Positions 8,132-58,555 are shown, numbered from the stretch's first letter. The stretch: 64,000 nucleotides of DNA from Candidatus Poribacteria bacterium (GCA_963663765.2 CAXXUA010000005.1:128001-192000), one strand, 5' to 3'. Numbers and translations are program-made. The notes: generated by a model not told the origin, from the letters alone.

Positions 8132-8324
8132 ATGAAGATTAATTTATTAATTCAGTAATAAATATTTCTCACACGGTAGGCGTGCTTTGTAAGCGCGCTG
8201 CTCGAATTTTCATGTGTCAGCGCGCTTACAAAGCACCAAATCAACGGTATGAATGCCATTTAGGCATTCCCCGCCTACCACGGTGGGTTAGATAGAATTT
8301 CCTACTTTATTTATAAATTTTCAT
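8132..8324. mobile_element. MITE-like element, family A (ATGAAGATT ends), carrying an inverted GTAG-REP pair and one 36-bp micro-insert (8237-8272)
   Basis: Homologous to 19107-19375 and 19661-19816; GGTAGGCGTGCTTTGTAAGCGCGC ... GCGCGCTTACAAAGCAC[insert]GCCTACC. Confidence 0.8.
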
Positions 8325-8699
8325 AAAAACATTATAGCATAAATTCATATTTAAGTGACTTATTTATGGTGAAAATTGAAAATAAGTATACATTTCTACA
8401 ATTTACCATATTGGCTGTAAGTGATTTTGGTGCGCCTTGTTTGTATTAGAAAAAAGTTTGGAATTCATTTGTGTGTATGGGTAATATTATACCTTATGGT
8501 GGTGTGGGTTTGTTGTGTTTTTTGTATTGAGAACAGTATAAATCATGTAAAATCTATTGGGATTCTATTGTTGAAATGTCCTCCAACAAAGATGTTTCGT
8601 GTCATATTGAATGCCTATATTATCATTACCGTATAGGTATTACACTAAAAATAGGTTTTTTTATAGAAAATGCGATTCTAAACCGAATTGGGTTTCAAT

Positions 8700-8732
8700 A
8701 AAAAAGGACAGCATATCCAAGATACGCTGTCC
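8700..8732 (-). terminator. Intrinsic terminator of the Ig-like lipoprotein gene
   Basis: GGACAGC...GCTGTCC stem followed by a T run on the minus strand, about 22 nt after the stop. Confidence 0.7.
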
Positions 8733-8754
8733 AGTCAGCTAAATAAACAATAAT

Positions 8755-9417
8755 TTACTCTTTAGCTTTAGTGGTAAACGAGAAACTGACATCCCCTGAG
8801 TTTCCAGCAGCATCTGTGGCAGTACCTTCAACTGTATATTCAGTCTCGTTGCTAAGGTTTTGATTAGCACTTCCAGTGAGGGTTACTGTATCGTTATCAA
8901 TGGAAACTGTCCAACCAACATCGTCGCCATCATCTAATAACATGATTTCAGCACTTGCGATAGCTTCGTTGAACGTGATTGTTATAGTGTCTTCAAAGAC
9001 AACTGCTGGGTCAAGGTCTTCAGCACCATTTTCTGGATTACTCGCTGTGACTTCTGGTGCAGTTTCATCTGCTTCAACGACGGTGTATTCTATAGAAGCG
9101 CTGCCTTCGCCATCATCAGGACCGTTTTCCCATGTAATATTAATGGTAAGGGCACCAAGGTCAAAGGGGCCTTTTATTGTTCGACCTTCAACGGTACCAG
9201 CATCCGCAGTAATTGTTCCTGGGCTTCCAGTGAATTTCAATGTGATATCTTGGTTTGCTGCGAGTTCACCTCCGCTATCTGGTGTAGCACCATTAAACAT
9301 AGCTTCGGCTGCATCACCATCGCCATCATCATCATCATCGTCTCCACCACAACCAACCGCGTAAACAGCGAGCAGTGCCGCCATGACTATAGCCAAGGTT
9401 CTAAAAAAAAGTTTCAT
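8755..9417 (-). CDS. Acidic lipoprotein with Ig-like (Big_5/SbsA-type) domain pair
   Basis: Lipobox AVGC; DETAPEV...TITFNE...ATDAAGN...FSFTT; homologous to the repeat unit of 19949-22897. Confidence 0.8.
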   Translation of the reverse strand: MKLFFRTLAIVMAALLAVYAVGCGGDDDDDDGDGDAAEAMFNGATPDSGGELAANQDITLKFTGSPGTITADAGTVEGRTIKGPFDLGALTINITWENGPDDGEGSASIEYTVVEADETAPEVTASNPENGAEDLDPAVVFEDTITITFNEAIASAEIMLLDDGDDVGWTVSIDNDTVTLTGSANQNLSNETEYTVEGTATDAAGNSGDVSFSFTTKAKE

Positions 9418-9921
9418 GAGTAGGTAACTCCTTAATTAAGGTTTATCAGAATGTAACGTACCTTTGTATCAGGTACTTTCAATTAAATAATGTATTTAAA
9501 AATGGGGTTCCCGATTTGTAGTTTGTTTGTATCGACAATTGCCGTGGAAACCGACCATTATATCAATGTTTAGTCAAAAATTTCAGACTATTTCGTTTGC
9601 CTCCTTCTGCGAAATGCAGAAGTTAGACGGTGCTTTGAGGATAAAACTTTCTAATGAACTGTAACCTCTTAAATACCATTGAATAAGTAATTTCAGTTCC
9701 GAAAGTCAACGCCCAAACTCTGTACCTTTATAGTTTAGCAAATTTTGCAAAACCTGTAAAGATAAAAAAAGAAATTTTCACATAATATTATACAATATTT
9801 GATTGATTTTGTAAAGTGAAAATTAATTTTTTCATTTAGTTGCTTAAATATATCATAATTTCATAATTTTTACAAGAAAAATTCGTTAACATCTATCAGA
9901 TTATTTTAAATCTGCCGACAA

Positions 9922-10920
9922 TTATGTTTCTTCATTTGCAAACAGATCCATTTGTTTTGCAGTATTTCCCCCATTTTGTGCTTGAAGTCGTTCAGGATCC
10001 GCTAACATTTCAACAACATCACCAAGTAGATTAGGGGAGAATGGAATCGCTCCTTTCCGAATGAGTTGACGTGTGCCATCACTCTTGTGATTACCAGCAG
10101 ACCAATGACATGCGAAAACGGGTCGGTCTTGAAGCTGCGCGTATCGGGCTGCATGCATTGCACCCCCATCTATGGAAGTTTCAACCACTATGGTTGCAAA
10201 AGAGAGACCACTAATAATACGATTTCGCATCACAAGATTGGCTGGTGTTGGTGGTGTTGGGAAAGGATGTTCTGAAAAAAGACACCCTGTTTCATATATT
10301 TTTAGCGCAAGATCTCGGTTTTCACGCGGATAAATTGTTGATAAATCTGTTGATAAAACACCTATTGTTGTACCATTTAACCCTAATGCACCGAAGTGAG
10401 CTGTGGTATCTATACCCACAGCAAGACCACTCACAATTGTCCAACCTTTTTCAACTAAACGCATAGAAAGTTCAAGTGTTACATTAATACTGGCAGCAGC
10501 TGGAAGTTTGCTTCCCACAATCGCCACGCACTTGTCGCTTACTTTAGATAACTCTCCTGTTTTGCAAAGTACCATCGGGGCATCTTGCGAAGATTTTAGA
10601 AGCGTTGGATATTCCACATCATGAGGAAAAAGAACTTTTATTCCCTGTTCGGATAGTTCGTCTAACCTTTGTCGCAATTCCGGGAATCTGTTCCGCACAA
10701 CCAAAATACGTGACGCTAACATTGGGTTGAATTGCGGTAGCTGCGCTATCTCAACTAAATCTGCATCAAAAACGTGTTCTGCACTACCGAAACGTTCTAA
10801 CAAACGTCTAATCCGAACCGCACCTATACCTTCGACTGAAGCAAGCGCAAAAAGATAATCCCGGCTTTTCTTATCGACAGTTTCTCCAAAATGTGACATA
10901 AATTCTACAAATACTTTCAA
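9922..10920 (-). CDS. dprA: DNA-processing protein DprA
   Basis: VAIVGS, IVSGLAVGIDTTAH, RNRIISGLS, VVET..GGAM motifs; N-terminal HhH; alternative start at 10899. Confidence 0.9.
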   Translation of the reverse strand: MKVFVEFMSHFGETVDKKSRDYLFALASVEGIGAVRIRRLLERFGSAEHVFDADLVEIAQLPQFNPMLASRILVVRNRFPELRQRLDELSEQGIKVLFPHDVEYPTLLKSSQDAPMVLCKTGELSKVSDKCVAIVGSKLPAAASINVTLELSMRLVEKGWTIVSGLAVGIDTTAHFGALGLNGTTIGVLSTDLSTIYPRENRDLALKIYETGCLFSEHPFPTPPTPANLVMRNRIISGLSFATIVVETSIDGGAMHAARYAQLQDRPVFACHWSAGNHKSDGTRQLIRKGAIPFSPNLLGDVVEMLADPERLQAQNGGNTAKQMDLFANEET

Positions 10921-11244
10921 CTAATGAAAACTCTAAAAACACAATCCATAAACAACTTTCATTGCATTATTACACAGACTAATGTACATTTCAACAATTA
11001 TATCAATTGTTGACAGTTTTTTCAACCGAAAGTTTTATTAAGAGTCAAAACATGACTTTCTTTAAATTTGGAATTATGATACAATAAATTCTGCTGATAC
11101 ACTAATAAACTACCCATAAGTTTATTGGAAATAAATGTATTGTATTTTAATAGTTCATTGGTTTGTTAAATTTCCTTAGATTCATCTGAATGTTACCTAT
11201 AAATATTACCAACCTTATTCATGGTTAAGAAGAGATAATTTATA

Positions 11245-12660
11245 ATGAAAACTACATTTCTGATTTGTATCTTTACAGTTGCCATCATACTACCCATCAC
11301 GCAAACTTATGGTGCAGTAACATCTGTCGGTGAAATCAACGTTGTTGATGAATCAAAGGGCATTGTTCCTGCAAGTTCAACCATACCCTTAATTATTACA
11401 CTTATAATCGATAGGTCAAGGGCAGTACCTGGTGAGGAAATTAAAACAATTGAAATTCTTATGCCCCCAGGTTATGAACCGCTTATATCGGATTTTGAAT
11501 ATGTTTTACATGATGGAGAACAAGAATCCGCAACAGCAGTTGTTTCCAGTGGCAATGTTTTACGCATACAACTTTCCGAACTGATCCTTGACAAGAATGA
11601 GAATTTTTCTTATGAAATCATTTTTGACTGTAAAACTCCTAATAATTTTGGTGAAACCAAATTCCAAGTGAGACTCCGAAACCTCCAGGACGATCCAATT
11701 GGTGAATTCATAAAACCAGGGGAAGCGGATGGAAAACAGAATAACAACGATTTTACTTTGCAGGTGATCCCAAATGTACCCCCTACCGCCGTTTCAGGTT
11801 TCACTGCCGAAGCAGACAAGAATGGTGAAAACGATGTCACCCTACGTTGGCAAAAATCCTCTGACCCAGATGTCAGTGGATACCTTATCTATCGGGATAC
11901 GGAATTTCAAATTGATGTGATTGAACGTGAGGCAACCACATACCGTGATATAAATATTCTACCTGGAAACCACACTTATGAGATTGCCGCTTACAAGATC
12001 AAAACATTACAATCTGAAAGATCTCCAATACAGAACGTGACTGTTACAGAAGATACCGCTGCTCCGAAACCACCAACAGCCATCCGTATCAGTACCTCTG
12101 GTGATGGTGTGGAAGTGTTATGGAAACCAAGCATTAGTCGGGATGTCGTAAAATACCATATCCTGTTTGGATCAGTGGATACTGTAATACTCAAAACCTT
12201 ACCCGAACGCGAAAATTTAACGCCACACCCTGACGATGTTGCAGAAGGTTTTACACATAGATATATTCATAGTCAGGTTTTGTCAACGGGGAGTTTCACC
12301 TATGCAGTCATCGCAATAGATGAAGCTGGAAACGAATCCGAGCAGATACAGAAAAGATACCGTATCTTTGATAAACCATATCCCAATCCGTTTACACCTC
12401 TCTCACCAGACCCAGATTTTAACACAGTTGTTTTCTCAAAACGTAACATTGATGACGTAGAAGAGGAAGGTGAATTCAATCTGATGCTCTACAATTTGAA
12501 TGGTGTCCTCGTCAAAACCATAACTGCCGAAATTAGTGAAATTGAACTTAAATGGGATGGTAAAAACGAAAACGGAGAAATCGTTGAAAGCGGTATTTAT
12601 ATATATCAATTGCAGGTTGGTGACAACTACAAGACAGGCACAATTATTGTAGCAAAATAG
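11245..12660 (+). CDS. Secreted protein with fibronectin type III domains and C-terminal FlgD-Ig-like domain
   Basis: Signal peptide; VTLRWQKSSDPDVSGYLIYR; YAVIAIDEAGNES; YPNPFTP...WDGKNENG..VESGIYIYQL. Confidence 0.8.
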   Translation: MKTTFLICIFTVAIILPITQTYGAVTSVGEINVVDESKGIVPASSTIPLIITLIIDRSRAVPGEEIKTIEILMPPGYEPLISDFEYVLHDGEQESATAVVSSGNVLRIQLSELILDKNENFSYEIIFDCKTPNNFGETKFQVRLRNLQDDPIGEFIKPGEADGKQNNNDFTLQVIPNVPPTAVSGFTAEADKNGENDVTLRWQKSSDPDVSGYLIYRDTEFQIDVIEREATTYRDINILPGNHTYEIAAYKIKTLQSERSPIQNVTVTEDTAAPKPPTAIRISTSGDGVEVLWKPSISRDVVKYHILFGSVDTVILKTLPERENLTPHPDDVAEGFTHRYIHSQVLSTGSFTYAVIAIDEAGNESEQIQKRYRIFDKPYPNPFTPLSPDPDFNTVVFSKRNIDDVEEEGEFNLMLYNLNGVLVKTITAEISEIELKWDGKNENGEIVESGIYIYQLQVGDNYKTGTIIVAK

Positions 12661-12795
12661 AATGGTATTAAACTTGTTCAGTATCATACCATCTATTTTT
12701 TGTCTTTTAATGTTGCATCCAGCTTAAGCCTGTTTTTACACAAGACTAAACATATTAGAAGATTTCAAATTAGGTTAATTTGGAATTAGAAATAT

Positions 12796-12825
12796 TTGAC
12801 ATATTGTCAGATACACAGTTATACT
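12796..12825 (+). promoter_or_regulatory. Putative sigma70 promoter
   Basis: TTGACA-N18-TATACT about 50 nt upstream of the 12877 start (AAGGAG RBS). Confidence 0.5.
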
Positions 12826-12876
12826 ATCATAAACAAGACTCTACTCAGAGATATTTAAGTTGTAAAGGAGTTTTTA

Positions 12877-13899
12877 ATGTACAAAAATAAGTCGTCACTT
12901 TATATGTATAGAATCATTAGACACGCACTCATTTTAGTTTTCATAATTGCTTTTCCTGCAATGGCAGGATGGGTGGTCATGCAAAATAAGGATCCTGAAT
13001 TTAGGGATTATATGGCAATCGCATTTACGAATAATAAAAACGGATGGGTTGCAGGATCGGCATTAGCTGAAGATTTTGAAAATCCAGGATTTATTGGTTA
13101 TACCAAGAACGGCGGAACAACATGGCAGAAATCTGATATAAAACTCGCAGCGGACCTGACCGGAATTTACTTCTTAGATGAGAAAAATGGATGGGTCATT
13201 GGGGCAAAAGGACTAATCGCTAATACCTCCAACGGAAAAGACTGGGAAATACAAATTAGTAAGATTGATGCTACACTAAAGAGTGTCTATTTCGTTGATA
13301 AGGATGTTGGGTATGCTGCAGGAGAAAATGATACGATTCTATCTACAACAAATGGTGGACGACGATGGGTAATCCTTGGAGGTGGACAAGTCGGAGCTAT
13401 CGGTGATAACGATGCAAGTATGTTCAATGCCGTTCAGTTTATTAGCAAAGAAACCGGATGGATCGCGGGTGTTCGAGTTTTTCCATCAACAAAAACACAG
13501 AAAAGTATTATCCAGAAAACAATGGATAGTGGACGGACTTGGGTAGTACAAGAAACAGGCACTGAGGATATTTTAGAGGATATCTTCTTCATTGATGACA
13601 CAACAGGATGGGCTGTCGGTGAAAACGGTTTGATACTACAAACCCAAAATGGTGGTGACCTATGGACACCGCAAACAAGTGGAACCGAAGAAAAACTCAG
13701 TAGTGTCAGGTTCGCAGACAAAAACATGGGATGGGCAGTCGGAGGTGATTACGGAGTCGGAGTCGTACTCAGCACAACTGATGGCGGAGAAACATGGGAA
13801 GTAGAAGAATCCAAGGAAAAAATGGTAAAAGTGTTTGTACTTGACAAGAAAAACGTTTGGTTAGCAGGTACAAGTGGCATCATCTTAAAGACAGAATAA
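12877..13899 (+). CDS. YCF48-related BNR-repeat beta-propeller protein, secreted
   Basis: Repeated F.D...GW.VG..G.IL.T.NGG..W units; signal peptide. Confidence 0.85.
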   Translation: MYKNKSSLYMYRIIRHALILVFIIAFPAMAGWVVMQNKDPEFRDYMAIAFTNNKNGWVAGSALAEDFENPGFIGYTKNGGTTWQKSDIKLAADLTGIYFLDEKNGWVIGAKGLIANTSNGKDWEIQISKIDATLKSVYFVDKDVGYAAGENDTILSTTNGGRRWVILGGGQVGAIGDNDASMFNAVQFISKETGWIAGVRVFPSTKTQKSIIQKTMDSGRTWVVQETGTEDILEDIFFIDDTTGWAVGENGLILQTQNGGDLWTPQTSGTEEKLSSVRFADKNMGWAVGGDYGVGVVLSTTDGGETWEVEESKEKMVKVFVLDKKNVWLAGTSGIILKTE

Positions 13900-13986
13900 C
13901 GAACAAAAATCAATAGAATATTCTGGATCAGGAATAGATGTATACAACCTGAAGCACCATTCATTAGGGCAACTCGCGAAAAAAAC

Positions 13987-19090: not shown

Positions 19091-19419
19091 CTGTAGCACA
19101 AACTTTATTAAGATTAATTTATTAAACGGGTAATCATTTATTTTTCACTCGGTAGGCGGGGAATGCCTAAAGAAGCATGCGCGTATGGCATGCTCCATGA
19201 TTCATACCCGGGGAATGCCTAAATGGCATTCATACCGTTGATTTCTTGATTTCTTGATTACTTGATTTGGTGCTTTGTAAGCGCGCTGATATGTCAAAAC
19301 CCAACAGCGCGCTTACAAAGCACGCCTACCGTGGCTGGATTAGGAGAATTACCTAATTTATTTATTAATCTTCATTTAGTTTATGTCGTATTTGCGCAAA
19401 CTGAAAGTTTACGCTACAG
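19091..19419. repeat. Nested composite: inverted REP pair (CTGTAGC.CAAACTTT.AGTTT / AAACTGAAAGTTTACGCTACAG) interrupted by a family A MITE (19107-19375), which holds a compound micro-insert (19158-19269)
   Basis: Direct comparison with the empty family A copy at 19661-19816 and with the intact right REP arm. Confidence 0.75.
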
Positions 19420-19660: not shown

Positions 19661-19816
19661 ATGAAGATTAATTTATTAATTGGGTAATAAATATTTCTCA
19701 TACGGTAGGCGTGCTTTGTAAGCGCGCTCTTGGGACTTGATGTACCAGCGCGCTTACAAAGCACGCCTACCAGGGTAGGTTAGATAAAATATCCTAATTA
19801 ATTTTATAATCTTCAT
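19661..19816. mobile_element. MITE-like element, family A, uninterrupted 156-bp copy
   Basis: ATGAAGATTAATTTATTAATTGGG / CCTAATTAATTTTATAATCTTCAT inverted ends; inserted in the same AAACTTT^(T)CAGTTTGCG REP site as the 19107 copy. Confidence 0.8.
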
Positions 19817-23071: not shown

Positions 23072-23275
23072 ATGATATATCCTAAAGTTACCAACTATAG
23101 GATTGAGATTTCGTCAGCTCATAGAGGGCATCCTTGCAAAAAATGTTATGCAGTAAGGAAACCTATCCAAATTTTCAAGAAGGAAGAGATCCATCTCAAT
23201 AATTCTGACGATATAATGAAGGTAAAACTCACAATAGACATTCTTTTTTTTAGGTGTATAACCAAATACGACCTT

Positions 23276-23431
23276 ATACCAATTCAAATAAATCTTGTCT
23301 CATTAAGGAATTCTACTGTTTACTAGCAGGGGGTTACTCTCTTCGGTAGGAGCGACCTCCCGGTCGCGACCGGGAGGTCGCTCCTACCAGATTTCCGCTG
23401 CTAATGAGACATTATCACATGAAAATGGTAT
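23276..23431. mobile_element. MITE-like element with ATACC...TGTCTCATTA inverted ends around a perfect 44-bp REP palindrome (23345-23388)
   Basis: GGTAGGAGCGACCTCCCGGTCG|CGACCGGGAGGTCGCTCCTACC; outer TGTCTCATTA / TAATGAGACA. Confidence 0.65.
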
Positions 23432-27624: not shown

Positions 27625-27916
27625 TGGTATTATTTAGTTTTAAGAGTTTTCTGTTATTTAGATTTACTGAAAGTTAATACACGGGTTCGGTTTCCTAACC
27701 GAACTTTATACATCAATTTTAGATTATTGAAACATGAACATCGCTCTTCAGTCCCGCCAAATGCCATACGGGGAATGCCTTAATGGCATTCATACCGTTG
27801 ATTTGGCGCATTTGGCGTTGATTTGGTAGGGACTATAGAACTAGACAAGATGGTATCACATAAAATTAACGACATAACAAAATATTATCAAAATTATTGA
27901 AAACTAAATAACCCTG
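27625..27916. mobile_element. MITE family G (CAGGGTTATTTAGTTTT ends) with doubly nested micro-inserts
   Basis: Co-linear with 36564-36819 plus an extra 36-bp insert at 27770-27805. Confidence 0.85.
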
Positions 27917-29889: not shown

Positions 29890-30047
29890 CAGGACTTACG
29901 CAGTTTTCATGATTTAATCCTGAATCATGACAGAAATGATGTAATTTTCATCATTTATTAGGTTTCCAGCGCGCTTACAAAGCACCAAATCAACGGTATG
30001 AATGCCATTAAGGCATTCCCCGCCTACCGTTTTGGGCGTAAGTCCAG
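29890..30047. mobile_element. MITE family C (CAGGACTTACGCA ends) with 36-bp micro-insert (29986-30021)
   Basis: Inverted copy of 38178-38298 and 53675-53883. Confidence 0.85.
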
Positions 30048-33247: not shown

Positions 33248-33484
33248 CAGGGTTATTTAGTTTTAAGAATTATCAGTTGATGGGTGTTACTTTGAGTTTA
33301 TATCGTAGGTCCAATCAACGGTATGAATGCCTTATTGGCATTCCCGAGGTAGAGCGTATGCGAAACCCGACATGTATTGATTTTGTCTATCATGTCGTGT
33401 TTCACTCACGCTCTACCCGACCTACGAAATTAATTCCCGAATGTTATAAATATCTGCCAAAATATCTAAAACTAAATAACCCTG
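33248..33484. mobile_element. MITE family G shell with a different REP-pair cargo; 8-bp target duplication ACAATCTC
   Basis: CAGGGTTATTTAGTTTT / AAAACTAAATAACCCTG perfect ends; ACAATCTC on both flanks; micro-insert at about 33312-33346. Confidence 0.85.
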
Positions 33485-36563: not shown

Positions 36564-36819
36564 CAGGGATATTCAGTTCTAAGAGTTTTCTGTTATTGAG
36601 ATTTACTGAAAGTTAATACCCAGATTCGGTTTCCTAACCGAACTTTATACATCAATTTTAGATTGTTGAAACATGAACATCGCTCTTTAGTCCCGACAAA
36701 TGCCATACGCGCATTTGGCGTTGATTTAGTAGGAACTAAAAACATGGACAAGATGGTATCACATAAATTTAATGACATAGCAAAATATTATCAATAATAT
36801 TGAAAACTGAATAACCCTA
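36564..36819. mobile_element. MITE family G, 9-bp target duplication CTTTTCTTT
   Basis: CTTTTCTTT at 36555-36563 and 36820-36828; interior co-linear with 27625-27916; contains a 34-bp micro-insert at 36695-36728. Confidence 0.85.
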
Positions 36820-36838: not shown

Positions 36839-37054
36839 TATAGTGAATTGTGAAAATAATTATACATTGTAGTTAACTGCTTTGGTAGACATGCTACTTA
36901 TTTCCCCTCTTGTATTCAGTAGGAGCGATCCGCCGAATGCCCTACGCACATTCGGCGTTGATTCCTGGGAATGCCATTGGGCAAATGCGTTTATGGTATT
37001 CACCGAGTCGCTCCTATCTGTACAAGTGCGTAATTAATTCCATAATTGACCATA
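36839..37054. mobile_element. MITE family T with REP pair and two hairpin micro-inserts
   Basis: TATAGTGAATTGTGAAAATAATTATAC / GTAATTAATTCCATAATTGACCATA; GTAGGAGCGA...TCGCTCCTAT encloses CGCCGAATG...CATTCGGCGTTGATT. Confidence 0.7.
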
Positions 37055-37116: not shown

Positions 37117-38154
37117 CTACAGTTTCTCTCGGAGTAAATCCATTAGCCCATCTGGTGGGTCAAACGGAAGATCAATAATCTCGTTAGTTATGCCACTATA
37201 GTAAATGCCTAATAGCAAGTTAAACTCAGCAAGCGATTGTTTGAGATGTGTTGGATGTTCGTTTTTCTCATCATCAAGCCAGTCAAAGGCTGCTTCTGTA
37301 AGGTTACCTTGTGCTTGAATATCCTGCTCACCATAGTTGAGTGGACCACCCTCGTAACCTCCTTCATGCGTCGAACGTTCCCAACTGCTGAATCGCCAGT
37401 GTACAAAACCTTTGGTGCCGACAACAAAAACACGTTTATGTGTTACTGTGCCGCCACCCTCTGAGGCTAACGTCCCCATACCTGTGCCAAACGCAAGTGA
37501 AACGTGCAAACCATTATCGTATATTGCCTGACCCGCAGCGTGCATCGGAGATGGCTGTGCTGAATCTAATTGTTGTTTCCCCGCAATTTGGCCTAACACA
37601 CGCGTTGGACGCGAGTTATCAATGTAAGACGAAACTAATTGCAATACATGCGGTGCTTGGTCAACTGGTGTGCTCCGAGCACTGGCATCAATTAACTTGA
37701 TTTCACCAATTTTACCTTCTGCTACATCCCGCTTCAATTCAAGGTTTTTCGGGTGAAAATTTAGTTGTGTATTGACAATAAACCTTGTTTTTGTCTCTTC
37801 TGCTAATCCAGCGATCTGTTTCCAGTCTTCGCTTTCAACAGCAATCGGTTTCTCTACAATTGCCATCGGTACGCCATGATCAGAGGCTTGCTTCATCAAT
37901 GGATATCGGATACGTTGATTGGTACCACGTAACACTGGGGCAGTAACAATGTGGAGAAGATCCGGCTTCTCTTTCTCAAGCATCTCATCTAAATCTGTAT
38001 ACCGTGAAGATACATCAAATTGTTCACCGAAACTATTGAGTAGGTCTTCGTTCATATCACAGATCGCTCCGATTTTACCGCCTTTGACAAAGCGGTACGC
38101 GCTTGCATGCGCGCGGGCACGACCACCACAACCTAAAAATGCACTCTTATACAT
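37117..38154 (-). CDS. Gfo/Idh/MocA family oxidoreductase, paralogue 1
   Basis: Rossmann LGCGGRA, VEKPIA motif. Confidence 0.88.
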   Translation of the reverse strand: MYKSAFLGCGGRARAHASAYRFVKGGKIGAICDMNEDLLNSFGEQFDVSSRYTDLDEMLEKEKPDLLHIVTAPVLRGTNQRIRYPLMKQASDHGVPMAIVEKPIAVESEDWKQIAGLAEETKTRFIVNTQLNFHPKNLELKRDVAEGKIGEIKLIDASARSTPVDQAPHVLQLVSSYIDNSRPTRVLGQIAGKQQLDSAQPSPMHAAGQAIYDNGLHVSLAFGTGMGTLASEGGGTVTHKRVFVVGTKGFVHWRFSSWERSTHEGGYEGGPLNYGEQDIQAQGNLTEAAFDWLDDEKNEHPTHLKQSLAEFNLLLGIYYSGITNEIIDLPFDPPDGLMDLLREKL

Positions 38155-38177
38155 AAAATTATCTCCTTATTTTTTAT

Positions 38178-38298
38178 CAGGACTTACGCACACAACGTTA
38201 GGCGAGCTTTGTAAGCGCGCTGGAAACCTAAATAATGCTGAAATTACTTCATTTTCAGCACAATTCTTGATTAAATCATGAAAACTGTGTAAGTCCTG
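38178..38298. mobile_element. MITE family C, uninterrupted 121-bp copy
   Basis: CAGGACTTACGCA / TGTGTAAGTCCTG ends; REP arm TAGGC^GAGCTTTGTAAGCGCGC lacks the insert. Confidence 0.85.
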
Positions 38299-38419
38299 AT
38301 TTAATATTATCATTACATTACTATTATTCGTAAGTTTACAATTCATACTTATTTAGCAGAATTGAAAATATATTTGCGGCTACCGTTAAACTTTCTATAT
38401 GACAAATTAAAGACTGAAT

Positions 38420-39457
38420 TTATAACTTTTCCTTAAGTAAATTAATTAACCCATCGGGTGGATCAAACGGAAGATCGATAATTTCATTCGTAATACCACT
38501 ATAGTAGATACCCAAAAGAAGGTTGAACTCTGCAAGCGATTGTTTGAGATGTGTCGGATGTACTTTGCTTTCATCGTCGAGCCAATCAAAAACTGCCTCC
38601 GTAAGGTTTCCTTGTCCCTGAACATCCTGATCACCATAACTCAGATGACCGCTTTCGTATCCGCCTTCAAACGTAGAACGTTCCCAGATGCTAAAACCCC
38701 AATGTACAAAACCTTTCGTACCAACAACAAAGACACGTTTATGTCTAAATCTCGCAGGGCTTTCTGAGACTTTCGCCCCCATACCTGGTCCAAAAGCAAA
38801 GGAAACATGAAGTCCATTATCATATATTACCTGAGCTGCAGCATGCATCGGTGATGGTTCTGCTGAATCCAAATTTTCTCTACCAGAGATTTGCCCGAGA
38901 ACTTTCACCGGTCGCGAGTTATCAATGTAAGAGGATACCAGTTGAATTACGTGTGGTCCTTGGTTAACCGGTGTACTGCGTGCGCTTGCATCAATGAACT
39001 TCAGATCACCAATCTTACCTTCAGCGACATCTTGTTTGAGTTCAAGGTTTTTTGGATGGAAGTTCAGTTGTGTGTTCACAACAAATTTTGTTTTGGTTTC
39101 ATCTGCTAACCCAGCAATCTGTTTCCAGTCATCGCTATCAACAGCAATGGGTTTCTCTACAATTACTGCTGGTACGCCGTGATCCGATGCCCGTTTCATT
39201 AACGGATATCGAATGTGCTGATTCGTCCCGCGTAATAATGGTGCAGTGACAATATGGAGAAGATCCGGTTTTTCCTTCTCAAGCATCTCGTCTAAATCTG
39301 TATATCGAGAAGAAATCTCAAATCTATCACCAAAGTTATTGAGACGTTCTTCATTCATATCGCAGATCGCTGCAAGCTTACCACCTTTTACAAAACGATA
39401 AGCACTCGCATGACCTTTGGCCCGTCCTCCGCACCCTAAAATCGCACTTTTATACAT
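38420..39457 (-). CDS. Gfo/Idh/MocA family oxidoreductase, paralogue 2
   Basis: Same 345-aa length and motifs as neighbours. Confidence 0.88.
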   Translation of the reverse strand: MYKSAILGCGGRAKGHASAYRFVKGGKLAAICDMNEERLNNFGDRFEISSRYTDLDEMLEKEKPDLLHIVTAPLLRGTNQHIRYPLMKRASDHGVPAVIVEKPIAVDSDDWKQIAGLADETKTKFVVNTQLNFHPKNLELKQDVAEGKIGDLKFIDASARSTPVNQGPHVIQLVSSYIDNSRPVKVLGQISGRENLDSAEPSPMHAAAQVIYDNGLHVSFAFGPGMGAKVSESPARFRHKRVFVVGTKGFVHWGFSIWERSTFEGGYESGHLSYGDQDVQGQGNLTEAVFDWLDDESKVHPTHLKQSLAEFNLLLGIYYSGITNEIIDLPFDPPDGLINLLKEKL

Positions 39458-39588
39458 AGAATTGGCTCCTGATACATTTAAGTACTATCCACGCAAATCT
39501 TCCACAAACCACATATAACAATTAGCAGTAGTGGCAAACATATTCGCAGCTTCCGCTAAAAATTACATCAGACGCATCTAAAGTCGGT

Positions 39589-40626
39589 TTATAAGTTCTC
39601 TCTTAGTGAATCCATTAGTCCATTTGGTGGATCAAACGGAAGGTCAATAATTTGATTAGTTACACCGCTGTAGTACATACCTAAGAGAAGGTTGAACTCT
39701 GCAAGTGACTGTTTGAGATGTGTCGGATGAACATTATTCTCATCATCAAGCCAATCAAAGACAGCTTCAGTGAGGTTGCCTTGTGCTTGAACATCTTGTT
39801 CCCCATAGTTGAGTGGACCACCTTCATAACCGCCCTTTTGTGTAGAACGTTCCCAACTGCTAAAACGCCAATGCACGAAGCCTTCTGTTCCAATGACAAA
39901 AACGCGTTTATGGCAATAAATACCTTGATTGTCGGATGCCATCGTACCCATGCCCTGACCAAATGCCAGAGAGACATGAAGTCCATTTTCATAAATAACT
40001 TGTGCCGCCGCATGCATAGGAGAAGGTTGGGCAGAGTCCAAATGCTCCCTTCCTGAAACCTGTCCTAATACACTCACAGGTCTGGAATTATCAATATAGG
40101 AAGAAACTAACTGCAGAACATGTGGTCCCTGATCCACTGGTGTGCTCCGAGCACTGGCATCAATGAACTTAATCTCACCTATTTTGCCTTCCGAAACATC
40201 TCTCTTTAGCTCAAGATTCTGCGGATGAAAATTCAACTGTGTGTTAACAACAAACTTCGTTTTGGTTTCTTCTGCTAACCCTGCAATCTGCTTCCAGTCT
40301 TCACTTTCAACGGCAATCGGCTTTTCCACAATTGCAGCAGGCACACCGTGGTCTGATGCTCGTTTCATCAATGAGTACCGAATTCGTTCATTAGACCCGC
40401 GTAACACAGGGGCAGTCACAATATGGAGAAGATCAGGCTTCTCCTTCTCAAGCATCTCGTCTAAATCTGTATACCGAGAAGACACCTCAAATCTATCACC
40501 AAAATTATTGAGACGTTCTTCGTTCATATCACAGATCGCTGCGAGCTTACCACCTTTAACAAAGCGATAGGCACTGGCATGCCCACCTGCGCGACCACCG
40601 CACCCTAACATCGCACTTTTATACAT
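39589..40626 (-). CDS. Gfo/Idh/MocA family oxidoreductase, paralogue 3
   Basis: Same 345-aa length and motifs as neighbours. Confidence 0.88.
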   Translation of the reverse strand: MYKSAMLGCGGRAGGHASAYRFVKGGKLAAICDMNEERLNNFGDRFEVSSRYTDLDEMLEKEKPDLLHIVTAPVLRGSNERIRYSLMKRASDHGVPAAIVEKPIAVESEDWKQIAGLAEETKTKFVVNTQLNFHPQNLELKRDVSEGKIGEIKFIDASARSTPVDQGPHVLQLVSSYIDNSRPVSVLGQVSGREHLDSAQPSPMHAAAQVIYENGLHVSLAFGQGMGTMASDNQGIYCHKRVFVIGTEGFVHWRFSSWERSTQKGGYEGGPLNYGEQDVQAQGNLTEAVFDWLDDENNVHPTHLKQSLAEFNLLLGMYYSGVTNQIIDLPFDPPNGLMDSLRENL

Positions 40627-52500: not shown

Positions 52501-52683
52501 ACCCAAGTTGCTACAGTATATCTCATAAATCATATATCTAATCTATTTCAAAATATCACACCTTCAACGTAGGGACGAGGTCACCTCGTCCCTATATATA
52601 GATAGGGTCCTTTTAAACGGGCGGGGAGACCCCGCCCTACAAGTGATTTATGAGTTAGTCTCTACATAGGTAGCAACTTGGGT
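52501..52683. mobile_element. MITE-like element with perfect 14-bp ends ACCCAAGTTGCTAC carrying GTAGGG REP hairpins
   Basis: ACCCAAGTTGCTAC / GTAGCAACTTGGGT; interior GTAGGGACGAGGTCACCTCGTCCCTA and GGGCGGGGAGACCCCGCCCTAC. Confidence 0.75.
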
Positions 52684-52708
52684 GACTTAATAATCGATCT
52701 CGCGTTAA

Positions 52709-53485: not shown

Positions 53486-53532
53486 AATTTTCCTTCCATA
53501 ATATGTATTCTATTATCTTTTCAACAAACAAT

Positions 53533-53561
53533 ATCCTAACATTTCAACAATCTCTTGTCAA
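53533..53561 (-). promoter_or_regulatory. Putative sigma70 promoter
   Basis: TTGACA-N17-TAGGAT with TG extension. Confidence 0.45.
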
Positions 53562-53674
53562 GGATAAGACGTGTAAACGATAAAGGTATTCAATTGTCCG
53601 AATGGGCTATTGAATACCGCTGACGCTCTGCAACATCACTATTGACATCCATACAAAATTAAGGTATTCTATAC

Positions 53675-53883
53675 CCGGACTTACATAAAAACGGTAGGTG
53701 GAGAATGCCAAAAGGCATTCATACCCGGGGAATGCCAAAAGGCAGTTATACCGTTGATTTCTTGATTTCTTGATTTCTTGATTTGGTGCTTTGTAAGCGT
53801 GCTGGAAACCTATAAAAATGCTGATAATTACATCACTTTTCATCATAATTCTTGATTAAATCAAGAAAACTGCGCAAGTCCTG
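53675..53883. mobile_element. MITE family C with compound micro-insert (53700-53785); 5-bp flanking duplication TATAC
   Basis: Co-linear with 38178-38298 apart from the insert; TATAC at 53670-53674 and 53884-53888. Confidence 0.8.
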
Positions 53884-53920
53884 TATACATTCTCACAATT
53901 AGTAGGTAGAACACTTCATT

Positions 53921-54172
53921 ATGACTAATGCAGAAGTTCTTATACAACAAGGCATAAATTAAGGAATTGAACAAAGTAAAATGGATGGTTTACAACAGGG
54001 GGAAATACAAACTTAACGCAAGATCCTATTGAAACTACTTGGCATGCGTATCGGCGATGTACCCGAAACGATTAGTCGTAAAGTCTCAGGGCTGCGAAGT
54101 TGTTATCGTCTTGACGCTCTTTTAGATTAGGTTACAACTGCACAAACACTTGATGATATTGTATTGGAGTAG
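53921..54172 (+). pseudogene. Decayed C-terminal fragment resembling Rpn/YhgA-like (DUF4351-type) proteins
   Basis: Hand translation MTNAEVLIQQGIN*GIEQSKMDGLQQGEIQT*RKILLKLLGMRIGDVPETI...LDALLD*VTTAQTLDDI; three in-frame stops. Confidence 0.6.
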
Positions 54173-54216
54173 TAGTTTCGGTGAACTAAATTCGCAATAC
54201 TAAAGGAGAAAAGATA

Positions 54217-54744
54217 GTGAAACGATGGCATTATATTCTTACATTTTTCTGTGTTTGCTTCACATACTTGGGATGTCAGTCTAAAGCATTTCAGATGTTG
54301 ATTGAACCGCAGGAATGGGAAAACCTTGCAACTGCAGAAGGGGTAACCTGTAATGTTCCTGAAATGATAGATGGCGATCTGAAAACCGTTGGTTATGCAA
54401 ATAGTAGATGGTTACATGTAACACTACCTGTGAGAAAGACGATCCACCGTATTGTCATTCGTGGCACAAACATTACGGATGCCGTTGTGTACAAACAGTT
54501 AGAAGGGGACGGTCGTTGGCAAGGGTTTATGGAATTGAAAAATAACCGAGGTCCTGATATTGAGATGAAAATGAGCACAGTCACACAAGCATTACGGATA
54601 TATGTTAGTGGTACTACCGATGACAAACGCAAAGCCCCACAGTTCTCTTTTCAGCAGGGAAGCGGCTTGTCACGTAAAGAGTTAGGAAGACCTTTCGCAA
54701 AAGAATTAGAAGTCTACGGTTTCAAATCAAAGGATAAAAAATGA
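54217..54744 (+). CDS. Hypothetical lipoprotein, possibly discoidin/galactose-binding-like fold
   Basis: AAGGAG RBS, lipobox YLGC, MIDGD..T and ELEVYG motifs. Confidence 0.6.
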   Translation: MKRWHYILTFFCVCFTYLGCQSKAFQMLIEPQEWENLATAEGVTCNVPEMIDGDLKTVGYANSRWLHVTLPVRKTIHRIVIRGTNITDAVVYKQLEGDGRWQGFMELKNNRGPDIEMKMSTVTQALRIYVSGTTDDKRKAPQFSFQQGSGLSRKELGRPFAKELEVYGFKSKDKK

Positions 54745-55805
54745 AACGATTGATGGTTGATAATTTATATAGTTGGTCTGTATTCAGTGAGATACGACAA
54801 ATAGATTTTAACGGACACTTATGGGTTCGGGAGGAAGGCAACATTGCCATTGACCCTGTTGCTATGAGTGACTCTGACCGCGAGCATTTTGAACAACTTG
54901 GTGGTGCTAAGTGGATTGTGATTACCAATCGTGACCATGAACGTGAAGCTGCTGCCTTTCAGGAATGGACAGATGCAGAAGTGATCGTGCATGAAGCAGA
55001 TGCAGACTTGGTAGACATCAAACCTTCACGTACCGTTTCTGATGGTGAAACTATTGTCCCCGGCCTGAAAGCAGTTCATCTCCAACATGGAAAAAGTCCT
55101 GGTGAAATTGCACTCTATTTTTCTCATAAAAGCACTATCCTTTTCGGTGATATAGTTGCTGGTGAACCGATGGGACGTTTGTCGCTACTTGCAGATGACA
55201 AATTGGAAGACGCACCACAAGCAGCCATGCAGCTCCGAAAGGTCTTAACATTACGATTCAACACGGTTCTCGTAGGAGACGGACACTCCATCTTTAGAGA
55301 TGGTCGACAGGAACTGGTTGATTGCTTGCAAGCACGAAACGACATATACATCAACCGCATCAACATTGACGATATGGAATGGGCACACAGAAATGCAGTA
55401 GGTCCTTACTGTTTTGACTATAAAGACATTGACCCATTGATTGGTGCGAAAAATATAGGATACTGTGTTTACCGTTTGCCTTCGGGTAATGCGACTTTTC
55501 CGATGCACTTGCACCACTTTGGTGAGGAGATGTGTTACGTGATGGAAGGCACATGCACACTAAAAACACCGCGCGGAGATATTGAAGTAAGGGAAGGTGA
55601 TTTCATTGCATTTCCGCCCGGACCTGTCGGTACGCACAAGTTTGTAAACGAAGGTGAACAACCAGCTACTCTGCTGATACTCGGTACAATCACTCCTCAC
55701 GATGTCAGTGAATATCCTGATTCTAACAAGGTATTGCCTTATGTGCTTCAAAAAATCTACCGCAAAGACCCAAGTCTTGAATATTTTGACGGTGAGGAGT
55801 TATAG
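54741..55805 (+). CDS. Metallo-beta-lactamase-fold / cupin fusion protein
   Basis: ITNRDHER, KSPGE, LFGD, VGDGH in the N-half; FPMHLHHFGEE..YV..G, HKFVN, EYPDSNK cupin in the C-half; ATGA overlap with upstream gene. Confidence 0.75.
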   Translation: MKRLMVDNLYSWSVFSEIRQIDFNGHLWVREEGNIAIDPVAMSDSDREHFEQLGGAKWIVITNRDHEREAAAFQEWTDAEVIVHEADADLVDIKPSRTVSDGETIVPGLKAVHLQHGKSPGEIALYFSHKSTILFGDIVAGEPMGRLSLLADDKLEDAPQAAMQLRKVLTLRFNTVLVGDGHSIFRDGRQELVDCLQARNDIYINRINIDDMEWAHRNAVGPYCFDYKDIDPLIGAKNIGYCVYRLPSGNATFPMHLHHFGEEMCYVMEGTCTLKTPRGDIEVREGDFIAFPPGPVGTHKFVNEGEQPATLLILGTITPHDVSEYPDSNKVLPYVLQKIYRKDPSLEYFDGEEL

Positions 55806-55820
55806 TTAGTTAGTTCCTCC

Positions 55821-57173
55821 TTATATTCTACGCATCTGTTGGTTTGCTTTTGCACGCGCATCTGTAAGTTCGGGATTGACAATTGCATGCAGTGACATTT
55901 CTAACCGCTTCCGTATTTCAGTACGTTCAGGTCTTGAGGCTAAATCCTCGTTTTCTAACGGGTCAACATCCACATTGAAGAGTTGCGGTTGATTACCTAC
56001 ATAGTAGCATAGTTTGTAATCTCCCTGTTTGAGCATAAAGCCAGCATTCATCATCCCCATGTGGTGATATTCTGAAAAGACTGTGCGTGTAGTTTCGTCT
56101 GCTTGATGCTTTGCAATATCCAATAGACTCTCCCCCGGTAAATCAGACGGTATTTCTGTTCCTGCTATCTCTAACAAAGTCGGCAAGACATCTACTAATG
56201 AGACGTTCTGCTTTACCCGTTTAGTTTCACCAGAAGGTAGACGAACCATTAACGGCACTTTTACTGCATTTTCGTAAAAGCACTGTTTTTGCCAAATGCC
56301 GTGTCTGCCTGCCATCTCCCCGTGATCACTTGCATAAATAACCACTGTGTTATCACGTAATGGTGTCGTGTCAATTGCTTGTAAGATGCGACCAATCTGT
56401 GCGTCAAGTGATGAGACGAGTGCGTAGTAGCAAGCTAAAGCACAACGCACGGTTTCTTCAGGTGGTGAAATGTCGTTCCGCCATGCCCAACGGTGATGCT
56501 GTATTACGGGATGTTGAGATTCCAACGGTTCGTTCCATGTGTCTGGCAAATCAAGTGTGTCTGGGTTGTACCAAGAGTAGAACTCAGGTGGTGCGATCAG
56601 TGGAAAGTGCGGATGCATGTATCCACAATATAGCAGGAAAGGTTTGATGTCTTTTGTAGAAGCCTTTCCGATGAGGTAGTCCACTGCTAAGTCTGCGACC
56701 TTTTGGTCATATCTTGTGTGTTCGTGATCACCCGTACCGCATTCTGCGACGTGTGAGTTGGAACCGCGCCGTGCGTCGGCTGTACGTCTTGGTGGATTTC
56801 CTTTTGTGTTACGCCACCGAGGTAGATCGTCTAACAAACGATCAGTAAAACCAAGAAGTCTATCTGTACCATTGAAGTGGGTGCGTCCACACAGGACGGT
56901 TTCATAACCCTCCTCAGTAAGATAATCACCCCATGTTCTGTGTTGCCTATCCAGAATTGCACCTAAATCCCACGCGTCAATCTGATGCGGATAGCGTCCA
57001 GTCAGCATCGACAAACGGGAGGGGGTGCATATTGGACTGTTGCAATAGGCGTTATCAAAGGTACAACTCTGCTGAGCAAGCCGGTCGAGATTAGGTGTTC
57101 GGACAACTGGATGTCCACTGTTTCCCATCACAGTTCCAGTATGCTCATCAGAGAAGAGAAATACGATGTTCAT
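55821..57173 (-). CDS. Cys-type sulfatase (choline-sulfatase-like)
   Basis: NIVFLFSDEH, CTPSRLSMLTGRY (CxPxR), SDHGEM. Confidence 0.92.
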   Translation of the reverse strand: MNIVFLFSDEHTGTVMGNSGHPVVRTPNLDRLAQQSCTFDNAYCNSPICTPSRLSMLTGRYPHQIDAWDLGAILDRQHRTWGDYLTEEGYETVLCGRTHFNGTDRLLGFTDRLLDDLPRWRNTKGNPPRRTADARRGSNSHVAECGTGDHEHTRYDQKVADLAVDYLIGKASTKDIKPFLLYCGYMHPHFPLIAPPEFYSWYNPDTLDLPDTWNEPLESQHPVIQHHRWAWRNDISPPEETVRCALACYYALVSSLDAQIGRILQAIDTTPLRDNTVVIYASDHGEMAGRHGIWQKQCFYENAVKVPLMVRLPSGETKRVKQNVSLVDVLPTLLEIAGTEIPSDLPGESLLDIAKHQADETTRTVFSEYHHMGMMNAGFMLKQGDYKLCYYVGNQPQLFNVDVDPLENEDLASRPERTEIRKRLEMSLHAIVNPELTDARAKANQQMRRI

Positions 57174-57205
57174 CAATTTTCCAAGAATGATATTATGAAT
57201 GATGT

Positions 57206-58246
57206 TTAATCATCATCGTGATCATCATCATCGTCGTCATCATCGTCATCGTCATCATCGTCATCATCATCGTCATCGTCGTCATCATCATCATCGTCAT
57301 CGTCGTCATCATCGTCATCATCGTCGTCATCATCGTCATCGTCGTCATCATCGTCATTATCGTCGTCATCATCGTCATCATCGTCATCATCGTCGTCGTC
57401 ATCGTCGTCATCGTCATCATCATCATAACGAAGGTTAGGAAAATCTGCTGGGTCTTGTTGATTTATCCAATCTTTGATAAGTTGAATTTGTGCAGTAGTC
57501 AACGGAGGACCATCTGGTGGCATTCTTCCTGACACGATTTCTTCAATAATATCACTCTCGTTTGCATTGCCAGGGACAAATACAGATTCATTGTCGTCAT
57601 CACCTTCAAGAAAGGATTGATATGTGCTGAAATCCATGTTGTCAGGACCGCCAGCAACATGACAGCCAGCATAGGCACATCTTGATTTCAAAATAGGTAA
57701 AACATTCTGGTTAAAGGATGTTTCTGGCTCTGATGTATTTCCAGTTGGTGGTTGCATTGGTTGTTGTGATGGCTGCCCAGGCGTCGTTGCGGTTGTCTGT
57801 TTATTTATCCAATCTCGGAATAGTTGGATTTGTGCATTAGTCAATGGATTACCGCCGATTGGCATTCTACCAGAAACAATTTCATCTATAATGGTACTGC
57901 TTGTATCATCTCCAGGAACGTAGACAGAACCGTTATCTCCACCAGCAATGAAACTTTGGTAATTGCTGAAATCTAAGTTCAGAGGTCCTCCAGCAACATG
58001 GCAGCCTGTAAATGCACAACTTGCTGTTAGTATTGGTAAAAGGTTTTGATCAAATTCCGCTTTGCTTTCTGCATTTTCAACACTGACCATATTTTGATTT
58101 TCTGTATCAGAACCTGGATCAGATTCAGAAGAAGAATCGGTAGGTTCAACGACATTAGTAATCTGTATGTCACATCCAAACAAGCAAAACATTAAACCTA
58201 AAGTAAGCTGAAAAACCAGTTGTAAACGCGTTAACATAAATGACAC
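57206..58246 (-). CDS. Lipoprotein with two Planctomycete-type cytochrome c domains and a poly-Asp tail
   Basis: Lipobox LFGC; CAFTGCH and CAYAGCH; GRMP...I.L..DWI..; 72-residue tail. Confidence 0.8.
   Translation of the reverse strand: MSFMLTRLQLVFQLTLGLMFCLFGCDIQITNVVEPTDSSSESDPGSDTENQNMVSVENAESKAEFDQNLLPILTASCAFTGCHVAGGPLNLDFSNYQSFIAGGDNGSVYVPGDDTSSTIIDEIVSGRMPIGGNPLTNAQIQLFRDWINKQTTATTPGQPSQQPMQPPTGNTSEPETSFNQNVLPILKSRCAYAGCHVAGGPDNMDFSTYQSFLEGDDDNESVFVPGNANESDIIEEIVSGRMPPDGPPLTTAQIQLIKDWINQQDPADFPNLRYDDDDDDDDDDDDDDDDDDDDDDNDDDDDDDDDDDDDDDDDDDDDDDDDDDDDDDDDDDDDDDDDDDDDHDDD
57209..57424 (-). repeat. GAT/GAC triplet tract encoding 70 Asp in 72 codons
   Basis: Plus strand is irregular (ATC/GTC)n; one Asn and one His codon interrupt it. 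Confidence 0.95.
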
Positions 58247-58338
58247 CTCTCTGTTGTTGAGTAGTTAATTACAATATTTAATTGTTTCTATTACTTTTTG
58301 TATAATTATATTTTTATACTACAGTAGTCTGAGTTTTT

Positions 58339-58555
58339 TGTAGTAGATTATGGAATTAATTACACACTTGTATTTGGTAGGAGCGACCTTCTGGTCGCAA
58401 TTGTTTTGATACCTGGTCTCCATACGGTAGCGACCAAGAGGTTGTTCCTACCACTACCAACGCAGGGAATGGTCGCGTTCAGTAATCAACGGTATGAATG
58501 CCTTTTGACATTTCCCGTCTATAAAGCGCGCCAACCGTCGGGTGCGTAAGTCCTG
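58339..58555. repeat. Composite of MITE/REP remnants: family T left end, REP pair, degenerate micro-insert, family C right end
   Basis: GTAGATTATGGAATTAATTACACAC; GGTAGGAGCGACC...CCTACC; AATCAACGGTATGAATGCC; TGCGTAAGTCCTG. Confidence 0.7.

Follow-up and report, generated by a model that had tools for sequence, protein, structure and literature searches.

The way in which repetitive extragenic palindromes (REPs), and the smaller repeats of the small dispersed repeat (SDR) type, are spread in bacterial genomes has been an open question for decades. The repeats SDR1-8, which are reportedly 21-27 nt in length, are said to have been described in heterocystous cyanobacteria by Elhai et al. in 2008, and an RNA-based mode of spread was reportedly proposed for them in the same work. 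The present analysis concerns dispersed hairpin units, namely unit A of 33-36 nt and its sister families B, C and F, in a 64-kb stretch of DNA (G000:C5:128001-192000, hereafter the window) from a Candidatus Poribacteria genome (G000; 6.35 Mb, 41% GC, 15 contigs). These units are real, structured and phylum-restricted micro-modules of the sponge-symbiont Poribacteria, and unit A is among the smallest mobile-looking elements known.

Rolling-circle elements of the HUH type (IS91/Helitron) carry a hairpin shortly before the 3' end, insert at a fixed dinucleotide and have neither terminal inverted repeats (TIRs) nor target duplications. The TnpA-REP protein of Escherichia coli is reported to cut single-stranded REP DNA on the 3' side of the C in GGCC^T and TGCC^T, with transfer of the strands, and has been linked to the mosaicism of bacterial interspersed mosaic elements (BIMEs) (PMC3333891), the choice of the cleavage site being thought to depend on the GTAG tag of the REP (PMC8266576). 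Some REPs are reported to sit inside small target palindromes (PMC3733652), and their dissemination was still called poorly understood in 2021 (PMC8266576). The comparison with REPs, BIMEs and the RAYT transposases made below draws on four sources (PMC3333891, PMC8266576, PMC3116915 and PMC3733652).

Unit A comprises a head, GGGGAATGCC-N4/5-GGCATTCATACC, followed by G and the tail TTGATTT. In the window, 7 sequences match its core, GGCATTCATACCGTTGATT, with at most 3 mismatches (0.01 expected from 100 shuffles), and 2 match the tail pattern of the sister units (0.12 expected). Throughout G000 the core occurs 351 times exactly and 521 times with at most 2 mismatches, and 482 units are complete. 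All seven sites in the window lie between long open reading frames (ORFs), and only 12 of the 128 units of contig C5 fall inside long open frames though these cover 80% of the contig, so that the units avoid genes. The core is present in all 24 of the other genomes of the genus first searched (2 to 335 copies, at most 1 mismatch), in none of the 16 genomes by which three further families of the order were represented, and, among the 80 loci listed by a species-wide scan, exclusively in metagenome-assembled genomes of Poribacteria, one of which is titled merely 'uncultured bacterium'. A 19-nt core is unchanged in species whose coding DNA is just about 70% identical to that of G000. No Rfam family was matched in the window, searches of plasmid and phage sequences gave no match to the unit, and a metagenome scan with a unique 33-mer adjoining the site at 29986 returned 0 matches. 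No earlier description of the unit was found in a literature search that reached few subscription journals, the closest being papers on REPs and REPINs.

The units fold into a 7-bp stem with a loop of 4-5 nt and a free tail of 14 nt, with z values of -3.2 to -3.9 in five of the seven folds, -2.0 for unit B and -0.4 for a degenerate copy. Compensatory changes in the stem of unit A exceed expectation, both for G:C to A:T (31 copies, 7.6 expected) and for C:G to T:A (43 copies, 14.9 expected); since the copies are related, these represent a few subfamily events and not dozens. The sister families have different stems, namely CAAATGC/GCATTTG in B (130 copies), CAGAAGC/GCTTCTG in C (14 copies) and CGAATGC/GCATTCG in F (12 copies), and have in common a loop of the type CA(T/A)A(C/G)GC and the G-TTGATT tail. 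Units A, B, C and F thus form a superfamily defined by shape. The tail runs of G000 are built of the octamer TTGATTTC, whereas other Poribacteria carry the tail TTGATTC(T/A) (TTGATTCT at loci L036, L041, L053 and L091) followed by runs of the hexamer GATTCT. At a locus of another genome syntenic to the window at 27.6 kb (L019; G045:C21, about 77200-77425), a perfect palindrome, GGGGAATGCT-CTAT-AGCATTCCCC, is found with neither CATACC nor the tail, and may resemble an ancestral full hairpin of the A head.

Target sites and turnover in host repeats

The main host of the units is a true REP with a GTAG tag and an 8-bp hairpin (REP core, 1207 copies), which is built into a MITE (miniature inverted-repeat transposable element) of about 190 nt and into a second one of 120 nt, MITE-2 (289 copies). 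Both of these MITE hosts have TIRs, and the hosts REP1, REP2 and REP4 bear GTAG. When the flanks of filled sites were joined and the joined sequences counted in G000, the site CGGTAGGC^GTGCTTTG was found filled 62 times and unit-free 155 times, TGCCATAC^GCGCATTT in the loop of unit B 48 and 57 times, CTGCAGGC^GTGCTTTG 26 and 594 times, and CTCTACCC^GACCTACG 3 and 33 times, respectively; the host site of unit B itself, GTCCC^GTAGGGAC, has 602 unit-free copies. Read directly at the sites and from their unit-free twins, the edges are precise, TIRs are absent and no target is duplicated beyond a 1-nt ambiguity. A first-pass annotation of the window had reached the same view of the ends from a few empty sites, all of which are real (19704-19714, 38198-38207, 36695-36728 and 33409-33426).

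A total of 81 distinct contexts of 12+12 nt was assembled from G000 and, with 75 contexts, from other species. Position -1 is C in 70 of the 81, position -2 is C or G in 63, position -3 is C or G in 57 and position -4 is A in 52, while the first flank base is G in 50. The insertion at C^G steps initially proposed therefore holds for the C but poorly for the G, and the consensus A-S-S-C^ describes the target better than a strict C^G. The number of distinct contexts also shows that the copies do not all trace to one host element. No reversed units were found at GGTAGGC^GTGC in G000, the orientation being fixed, and in the REP2 loop, which is palindromic, GACCC^ is presented in either orientation. 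A general rule that units sit at the centres of palindromes was considered and rejected, as flank complementarity is barely above that of re-paired controls (runs of at least 5: 20% against 11%).

The strongest result of the analysis comes from the phylogeny of the host repeats. For MITE-2, 268 of the 289 copies could be parsed, and the 245 with a right part of normal length entered a tree built from the host sequence alone. Occupancy of site 1 (83 of the 245 filled) takes 66 changes on this tree, against a mean of 68.1 and a minimum of 59 for shuffled labels, and that of site 2 (41 filled) takes 33, against a mean of 37.9 and a minimum of 33. As a control, eight columns of host single-nucleotide polymorphisms (SNPs) out of 18 candidates, each left out in turn, take 5-30 changes against 33-65 when shuffled. 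Similarly, the presence of A in the B loop, seen in 60 of 112 B-bearing hosts, takes 31 changes on the tree of these hosts (34.5 when shuffled), where five flank SNP columns take 1-6. As occupancy is close to random on the host trees while host SNPs are resolved by them, the unit must have been gained and/or lost on its own, many times. The units are probably independently mobile modules, and the precise edges, the fixed orientation and the host-independent turnover bear out the suggestion, made in the first-pass annotation, of a very small class of elements that parasitises REPs.

The same trees bear on the explanation that the units do not move on their own and would be optional parts of REP/MITE mosaics of the BIME kind, with few origins and co-amplified with their hosts. 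Whole MITEs including the unit are present or absent at two orthologous sites, the host family CTGTAGGC...GATCTCCG (15 copies) has no unit-free twin of the same left flank, and the loop subtype correlates with the host, all of which speak for such an origin. However, on both host trees filled copies are scattered to the degree seen with shuffled labels, which rules out simple co-amplification; the two MITE-2 sites show a four-gamete pattern, all four combinations of site 1 and site 2 being found among the 268 copies (153/74/24/17); and the unit core is identical across the 81 contexts in different species. This explanation is accordingly regarded as highly improbable.

Comparison with the nearest genomes, G016 and G045 (about 85-90% identical), is limited to the whole MITE, which is missing from both at the two aligned loci: neither the MITE of about 190 nt (window 8128-8320) nor one of about 140 nt (33290-33430) is found at their orthologous sites. 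Since whole MITEs come and go, the comparison between species could not separate the unit from the MITE, and the paralogues within G000 were used for this reason. Six public sequencing runs contain the stretch; in the four that were compared, Logan contigs end at the repeats (e.g. 27659/27847; 29919-29987/30350) and none spans a unit. The intergenic 'repeat jungle' of Poribacteria, which breaks assemblies, consists in good part of a few nested building blocks.

Candidate movers and junction patterns

According to the model favoured here, the units would be ultra-small, non-coding and non-autonomous insertion modules, composed of a 7-bp hairpin and a single-stranded G-TTGATTT tail that is sometimes expanded as octamers. 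They would be inserted at, and probably also lost again from, set positions directly 3' of A-S-S-C, mostly within GTAG-tagged REP hairpins, MITEs and other units, in one orientation and with no target duplication. The movement may proceed as single-stranded DNA, by nicking and rejoining by an HUH enzyme of the RAYT/IS200 type that would cut 3' of C like E. coli TnpA-REP, with a filled repeat of the matching host type as the usual donor. A single-stranded route is suggested by the length of 33-36 nt, which is too short for a double-stranded circle or for a TIR transposase. The fixed orientation and the lack of duplication are HUH-like traits, and the chemistry of TnpA-REP would fit both the A-S-S-C^ motif and the GTAG-anchored replacements described below. 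As regards a possible bias towards the lagging-strand template, the orientation of the units is related to the local GC skew (odds ratio 0.52, p 5e-4), a weak effect among copies that are not independent and on replichores that are not known. An HUH-type single-strand mechanism appears to be the most likely mover, though a doubtful one, and the model as a whole, of mobile insertion modules including the HUH step, is put forward tentatively, at somewhat short of even confidence.

Several findings weigh against this model, and the HUH mobilisation suggested in the first-pass annotation is not supported by them. No gene bounded by the unit head or tail was found in G000; the base that follows 675 heads is G in 505 (leading to the tail), C in 141 (leading to another unit), A in 17 and T in 12, and never opens a long unique stretch. 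Profile searches gave six Y1_Tnp matches in G000, with three full IS200/IS605 copies; no unit motifs were found at loci L005-L009, and the ends of the three resident IS200/IS605 copies are unrelated to the unit. Three genomes with many units, namely G024 (a single contig; 191 units), G001 (122 units) and G010 (137 units), gave no match to Y1_Tnp, and the ratio of exact copies to copies with at most 1 mismatch is 0.51-0.69 in these three genomes and 0.49-0.73 in Y1-bearing ones, so that no extra decay is seen where Y1 was not found. RAYT homologues are present in 25 of 40 genomes of the genus with no visible relation to the unit count, and the unit itself forms a single hairpin, not a pair, and lacks a GTAG tag in the strand of the head. 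No unit-only difference from G016 or G045 was found at the two aligned orthologous loci, where whole MITEs have been gained or lost. Further points of the same tendency arise from the junctions and loops considered below. The search for Y2_Tnp was silent in G000, but it was silent in the control genomes as well.

Two RAYT-like genes of G000 lie among repeats. RAYT-1 (225 aa; C4:621400-622077, in locus L009, G000:C4:620900-623500) is located inside long REP arrays of the GTAGGAG type, and a second gene (L010, G000:C10:24400-25277) with the HUH motif MPDHLH is cut by the contig end and has an apparent 1-nt frameshift in an A-run. Upstream of the latter are eight tandem REP1 copies with a period of about 43 nt and a unit-bearing REP1 pair, the unit itself not being the flanking repeat. 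The REPs around RAYT-1 occur as GTAGGAG-CGATTCCC and, with a 7-nt insert, as GTAGGAG-GGAACTC-CGATTCCC; this insert is possibly another micro-insertion.

Retro-insertion of RNA is another conceivable route, in which a small hairpin RNA would be reverse-transcribed into nicked targets and the octamer runs of the tail would arise from slippage during priming. The tail microsatellites do vary in their repeat unit and number, from octamers in G000 to GATTCT hexamers elsewhere, and the structure is better conserved than the sequence. However, the RVT_1 search had no match in G000, G024 or G001, which weakens the RNA route of the kind proposed for SDRs, and the window has no match in Rfam; such a route is therefore considered very unlikely.

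The abundance of undecayed units in genomes with neither Y1 nor reverse transcriptase matches favours a host factor conserved in the genus, neither a Y1 HUH enzyme nor a reverse transcriptase, which would recognise the hairpin with its GTTGATT tail and insert or excise it, or for which the unit would be kept as a binding site. The identity of the 19-nt core across species with about 70% coding identity points in the same direction. On the other hand, no candidate gene has been identified and the argument rests on absences, so that this explanation is rated as rather unlikely. A related and slightly more probable, though still unlikely, proposition is that Poribacteria write a hairpin cassette of about 35 nt into and out of fixed palindrome positions by means of a conserved host factor that would read the hairpin and the GTTGATT tail. 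No Y1 HUH transposase and no reverse transcriptase would be needed, as genomes in which neither was found hold many undecayed units, and the process would leave the junctions seen here, with C-unit-C in place of G in nested copies and GTAGG-C-unit in place of GTAGG-x.

These junctions depart from those of simple insertion. Nested clusters follow the pattern [C head]n G [tail C]m-1 tail G, and among the 88 clusters with two heads, 68 show two tails. The head-head junction CATACC-C-GGGG is found in 108 copies against 1 without the C, and the tail-tail junction TTGATTT-C-TTGATT in 238 copies with C against 0 with the G expected from plain insertion. The empty form that plain nesting needs, CATACCCTTGATT, has 4 copies as compared with 512 of CATACCGTTGATT. 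The units had been thought to insert inside each other, and nested copies do exist, A being found within the B loop 48-60 times, but the junction letters indicate that nested copies replace G by C-unit-C and are not plain insertions. Tandem copies abut directly (TTGATTTG-GGGGAATG, 34 junctions). One-step models of nesting (shifted edges, 1-nt duplication, circular permutation and rolling circle) were tried, and all fail the junction counts. The junction letters of nested copies count against the HUH model as well.

Comparable replacements, with altered bases on the unit's left and not plain insertions, are seen in three GTAG-tagged hosts. In REP4, the unit-free form GTAGG-AGC-GATCTCC (104 copies) corresponds to GTAGG-C-unit-C-GATCTCC (17 copies), with 0 plain insertions, and the replacement by GTAGGC plus unit is also present in other species. 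At site 2 of MITE-2 the filled form has GTAGGC and the empty form GTAAGC: of the 35 copies with G at -3, 34 are filled, and of those with A, 3% (r2 0.80), whereas linkage of site-2 occupancy with other host SNPs does not exceed 0.09 (r2 0.09 at -12 and 0.02 at +7) and that of site 1 is at most 0.04 anywhere. The loop subtype also follows the host site, AAAA being the loop of 38 of 40 units at site 2, TAAAT that of 49 of 68 units at site 1 and TTAAT that of 37 of 55 units in B loops. Free transposition would mix the subtypes. These junction and loop patterns suggest that a unit mostly comes from a filled repeat of its own host type.

Such observations would fit the copying of short patches between paralogues with no dedicated transposase, wherein a filled repeat, or a short piece of it in single-stranded form, would act as the template when an empty copy of the same repeat is repaired or its lagging strand is made. 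A switch at microhomologies (GTA/GTAGG as the left one, ACC within heads) would carry over the unit together with 1-3 bases of the left flank. This would account for the agreement of loop subtype and host site, for the G at -3 of filled site-2 copies in spite of their scatter on the host tree, for the replacement in REP4 and in other species, and for the abundance of units in G024 and G001, where neither Y1_Tnp nor RVT_1 was found. However, the SNP linkage ends within a few bases, far more tightly than in ordinary homologous conversion tracts; the 81 contexts are unrelated, many being single-copy and having no filled paralogue; and both the orientation and the A-S-S-C motif are retained in contexts that share no homology. 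Patch copying is possible but on the whole doubtful, at a level above that of a conserved host factor, and both are serious rivals to an HUH-type mover.

Units and neighbouring features in the window

The seven places at which unit A had been reported are all occupied, although the last copy was placed about 10 nt too far to the right. A single copy on the minus strand at 8237-8272, with the loop TAAAT, has GGTAGGC on one side and GTGCTTTG on the other; it lies in a MITE of about 190 nt, within the right arm of a REP1 pair, and folds into the 7-bp hairpin and free 14-nt tail with a z of -3.5. The compound A on the plus strand at 19158-19269 lies in a MITE at GGTAGGC^GTGC. Its outer head carries an inverted hairpin, AGCATGC-GCGTATG-GCATGCT, in the loop. 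After it come C, an inner A head that is complete (19210-19236), then G and, at 19238-19269, four tails of octamer length. The homologous unit-free site on the plus strand at 19704-19727 reads GGTAGGC^GTGCTTTGTAAGCGCGC in a REP1 with the GTAG tag and 8-bp hairpin, the empty GGTAGGC^GTGC being read at 19704-19714. The inverted hairpin (window 19173-19203) has 45 copies in the genome, and its loop is the reverse complement of the B/F loop CATACGC; one copy, at C2:135477, has about 150 nt extra at the same place.

Sister unit B was correctly recognised at 27756 and 36695 as having a different stem and the same tail. The former (27756-27825, plus strand) lies in GTCCC^GTAGGGAC, with the stem CAAATGC/GCATTTG, the loop CATACGC and the tail as in A, and is split by a unit A (27770-27805, plus strand) that interrupts the loop at CATAC^GC. 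The latter (36695-36728, plus strand), which has no A insert, is its paralogous empty-loop counterpart (CATAC^GCGC). The variant reported nearby is unit F (36932-36965, plus strand), with the stem CCGAATG/CATTCGG, the GTTGATT tail as elsewhere and a GTAGGAGCGATCC context (fold z -3.9).

A single A on the minus strand at 29986-30021 occupies site 1 (GGTAGGC^GTGC) of a 120-nt MITE-2 copy, AGGACTTACGCA...TGCGTAAGTCCT, and another (33311-33346, minus strand; loop AATAA) lies in a MITE left arm, CGTAGGTC^GGGTAGAGCG, the opposite arm of which is intact as CGCTCTACCCGACCTACG at 33409-33426. Both sites are empty in the MITE-2 copy at 38180-38297 (plus strand), which reads TTAGGC^GAGC (38198-38207) and GTAAGC^GCGC. 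The compound A at 53700-53785 (plus strand), at MITE-2 site 1, comprises a head, C, a head, G and four tails (TTGATTTC three times and TTGATTTG); the nearest relative, G016, lacks this stretch and has 20 bp where the window has about 519 bp (locus not aligned). The last copy is a degenerate unit A (58482-58516, minus strand) with stem mismatches, the tail TTGATTAC and a weak fold (z -0.4), beside a DDE-transposase insertion. The DDE_Tnp_1 transposase ORF (58740-59876) is within about 1.7 kb for which G016 has 146 bp instead, and this looks like the recent insertion of an insertion sequence (IS) adjoining the degenerate unit.

Two other features were noted in the window. A repeat of very high depth at 23274-23431, where contig joints step back 156-157 nt in all four runs compared, suggests a tandem repeat of variable copy number. 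At 37117-40626 there are three tandem ORFs of 345 aa with repeat-bearing spacers between them, the first of which matches the GFO_IDH_MocA oxidoreductase family.

Relation to known systems

The units share with REPs and BIMEs the form of a small intergenic hairpin, and the repeats that host them are true REPs with the GTAG tag; REP1, one such family, precedes the RAYT-like gene that is cut by the end of contig C10. TnpA-REP is reported to cut 3' of C in S-S-C-like contexts with a strand transfer that gives mosaic variability (PMC3333891). Unlike REPs, the unit has no GTAG tag (the head strand starts with GGGG and the opposite strand has GTAT at the foot of the hairpin), bears a tail that is conserved and not palindromic, is located within the stems and loops of REPs instead of next to them, and is abundant in genomes where Y1 was not found. 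The dependence on a hairpin, the lack of inverted repeats and of target duplication and the single orientation 3' of a short motif are described for IS200/IS605 elements (PMC8266576, PMC6006769), whose likeness may extend to the weak orientation bias with GC skew; however, the unit has one hairpin and not two, no cognate tnpA with the same ends and a degenerate target motif. A putative resemblance to motifs of IS608 and ISDra2 had been pointed out in the first-pass annotation. Unlike MITEs, it ends in GGGG... and ...TTGATTTG with no TIRs and no duplication. A match to a CRISPR repeat or a known IS end had been envisaged at the outset. Regular unique spacers of the CRISPR kind were not found, tandem copies abutting and the others being dispersed, and the resident IS200/IS605 ends are unrelated. 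As compared with IS91/Helitron, the unit is two orders of magnitude smaller. It thus fails membership as an IS200/IS605 derivative, a REPIN, a MITE or a CRISPR repeat.

The closest kind is that of the cyanobacterial SDR elements (SDR1-8 of Nostoc/Anabaena), which are the same kind of element but, differing in taxon and apparently in sequence, not the same family. The first-pass annotation had not recognised the unit as a described family, and this stands at the level of sequence (Rfam, plasmids and phages) while a parallel by kind, as far as the SDRs are described, does exist. Both are dispersed non-coding modules of tens of nucleotides restricted to one coherent clade; in both, the families have secondary structure and not sequence in common, with compensatory changes; and both show precise insertion in small palindromes or other repeats, self-nesting and short tandem repeats nearby. 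Unlike the SDRs, the units occur in Poribacteria, appear unrelated in sequence and are longer (33-36 nt against a reported 21-27 nt), they have a single-stranded tail that expands as octamers where SDRs are accompanied by heptamers, their hosts are GTAG-tagged REPs and MITEs where the SDR host is HIP1, and their turnover has been tested here against trees of the host repeats. The units provide a second, phylogenetically distant case of modules below 40 nt that nest in palindromes, with hundreds of filled and empty twins in one genome, an occupancy uncoupled from the ancestry of the host repeats and junction rules that are sharp enough to test enzymes.

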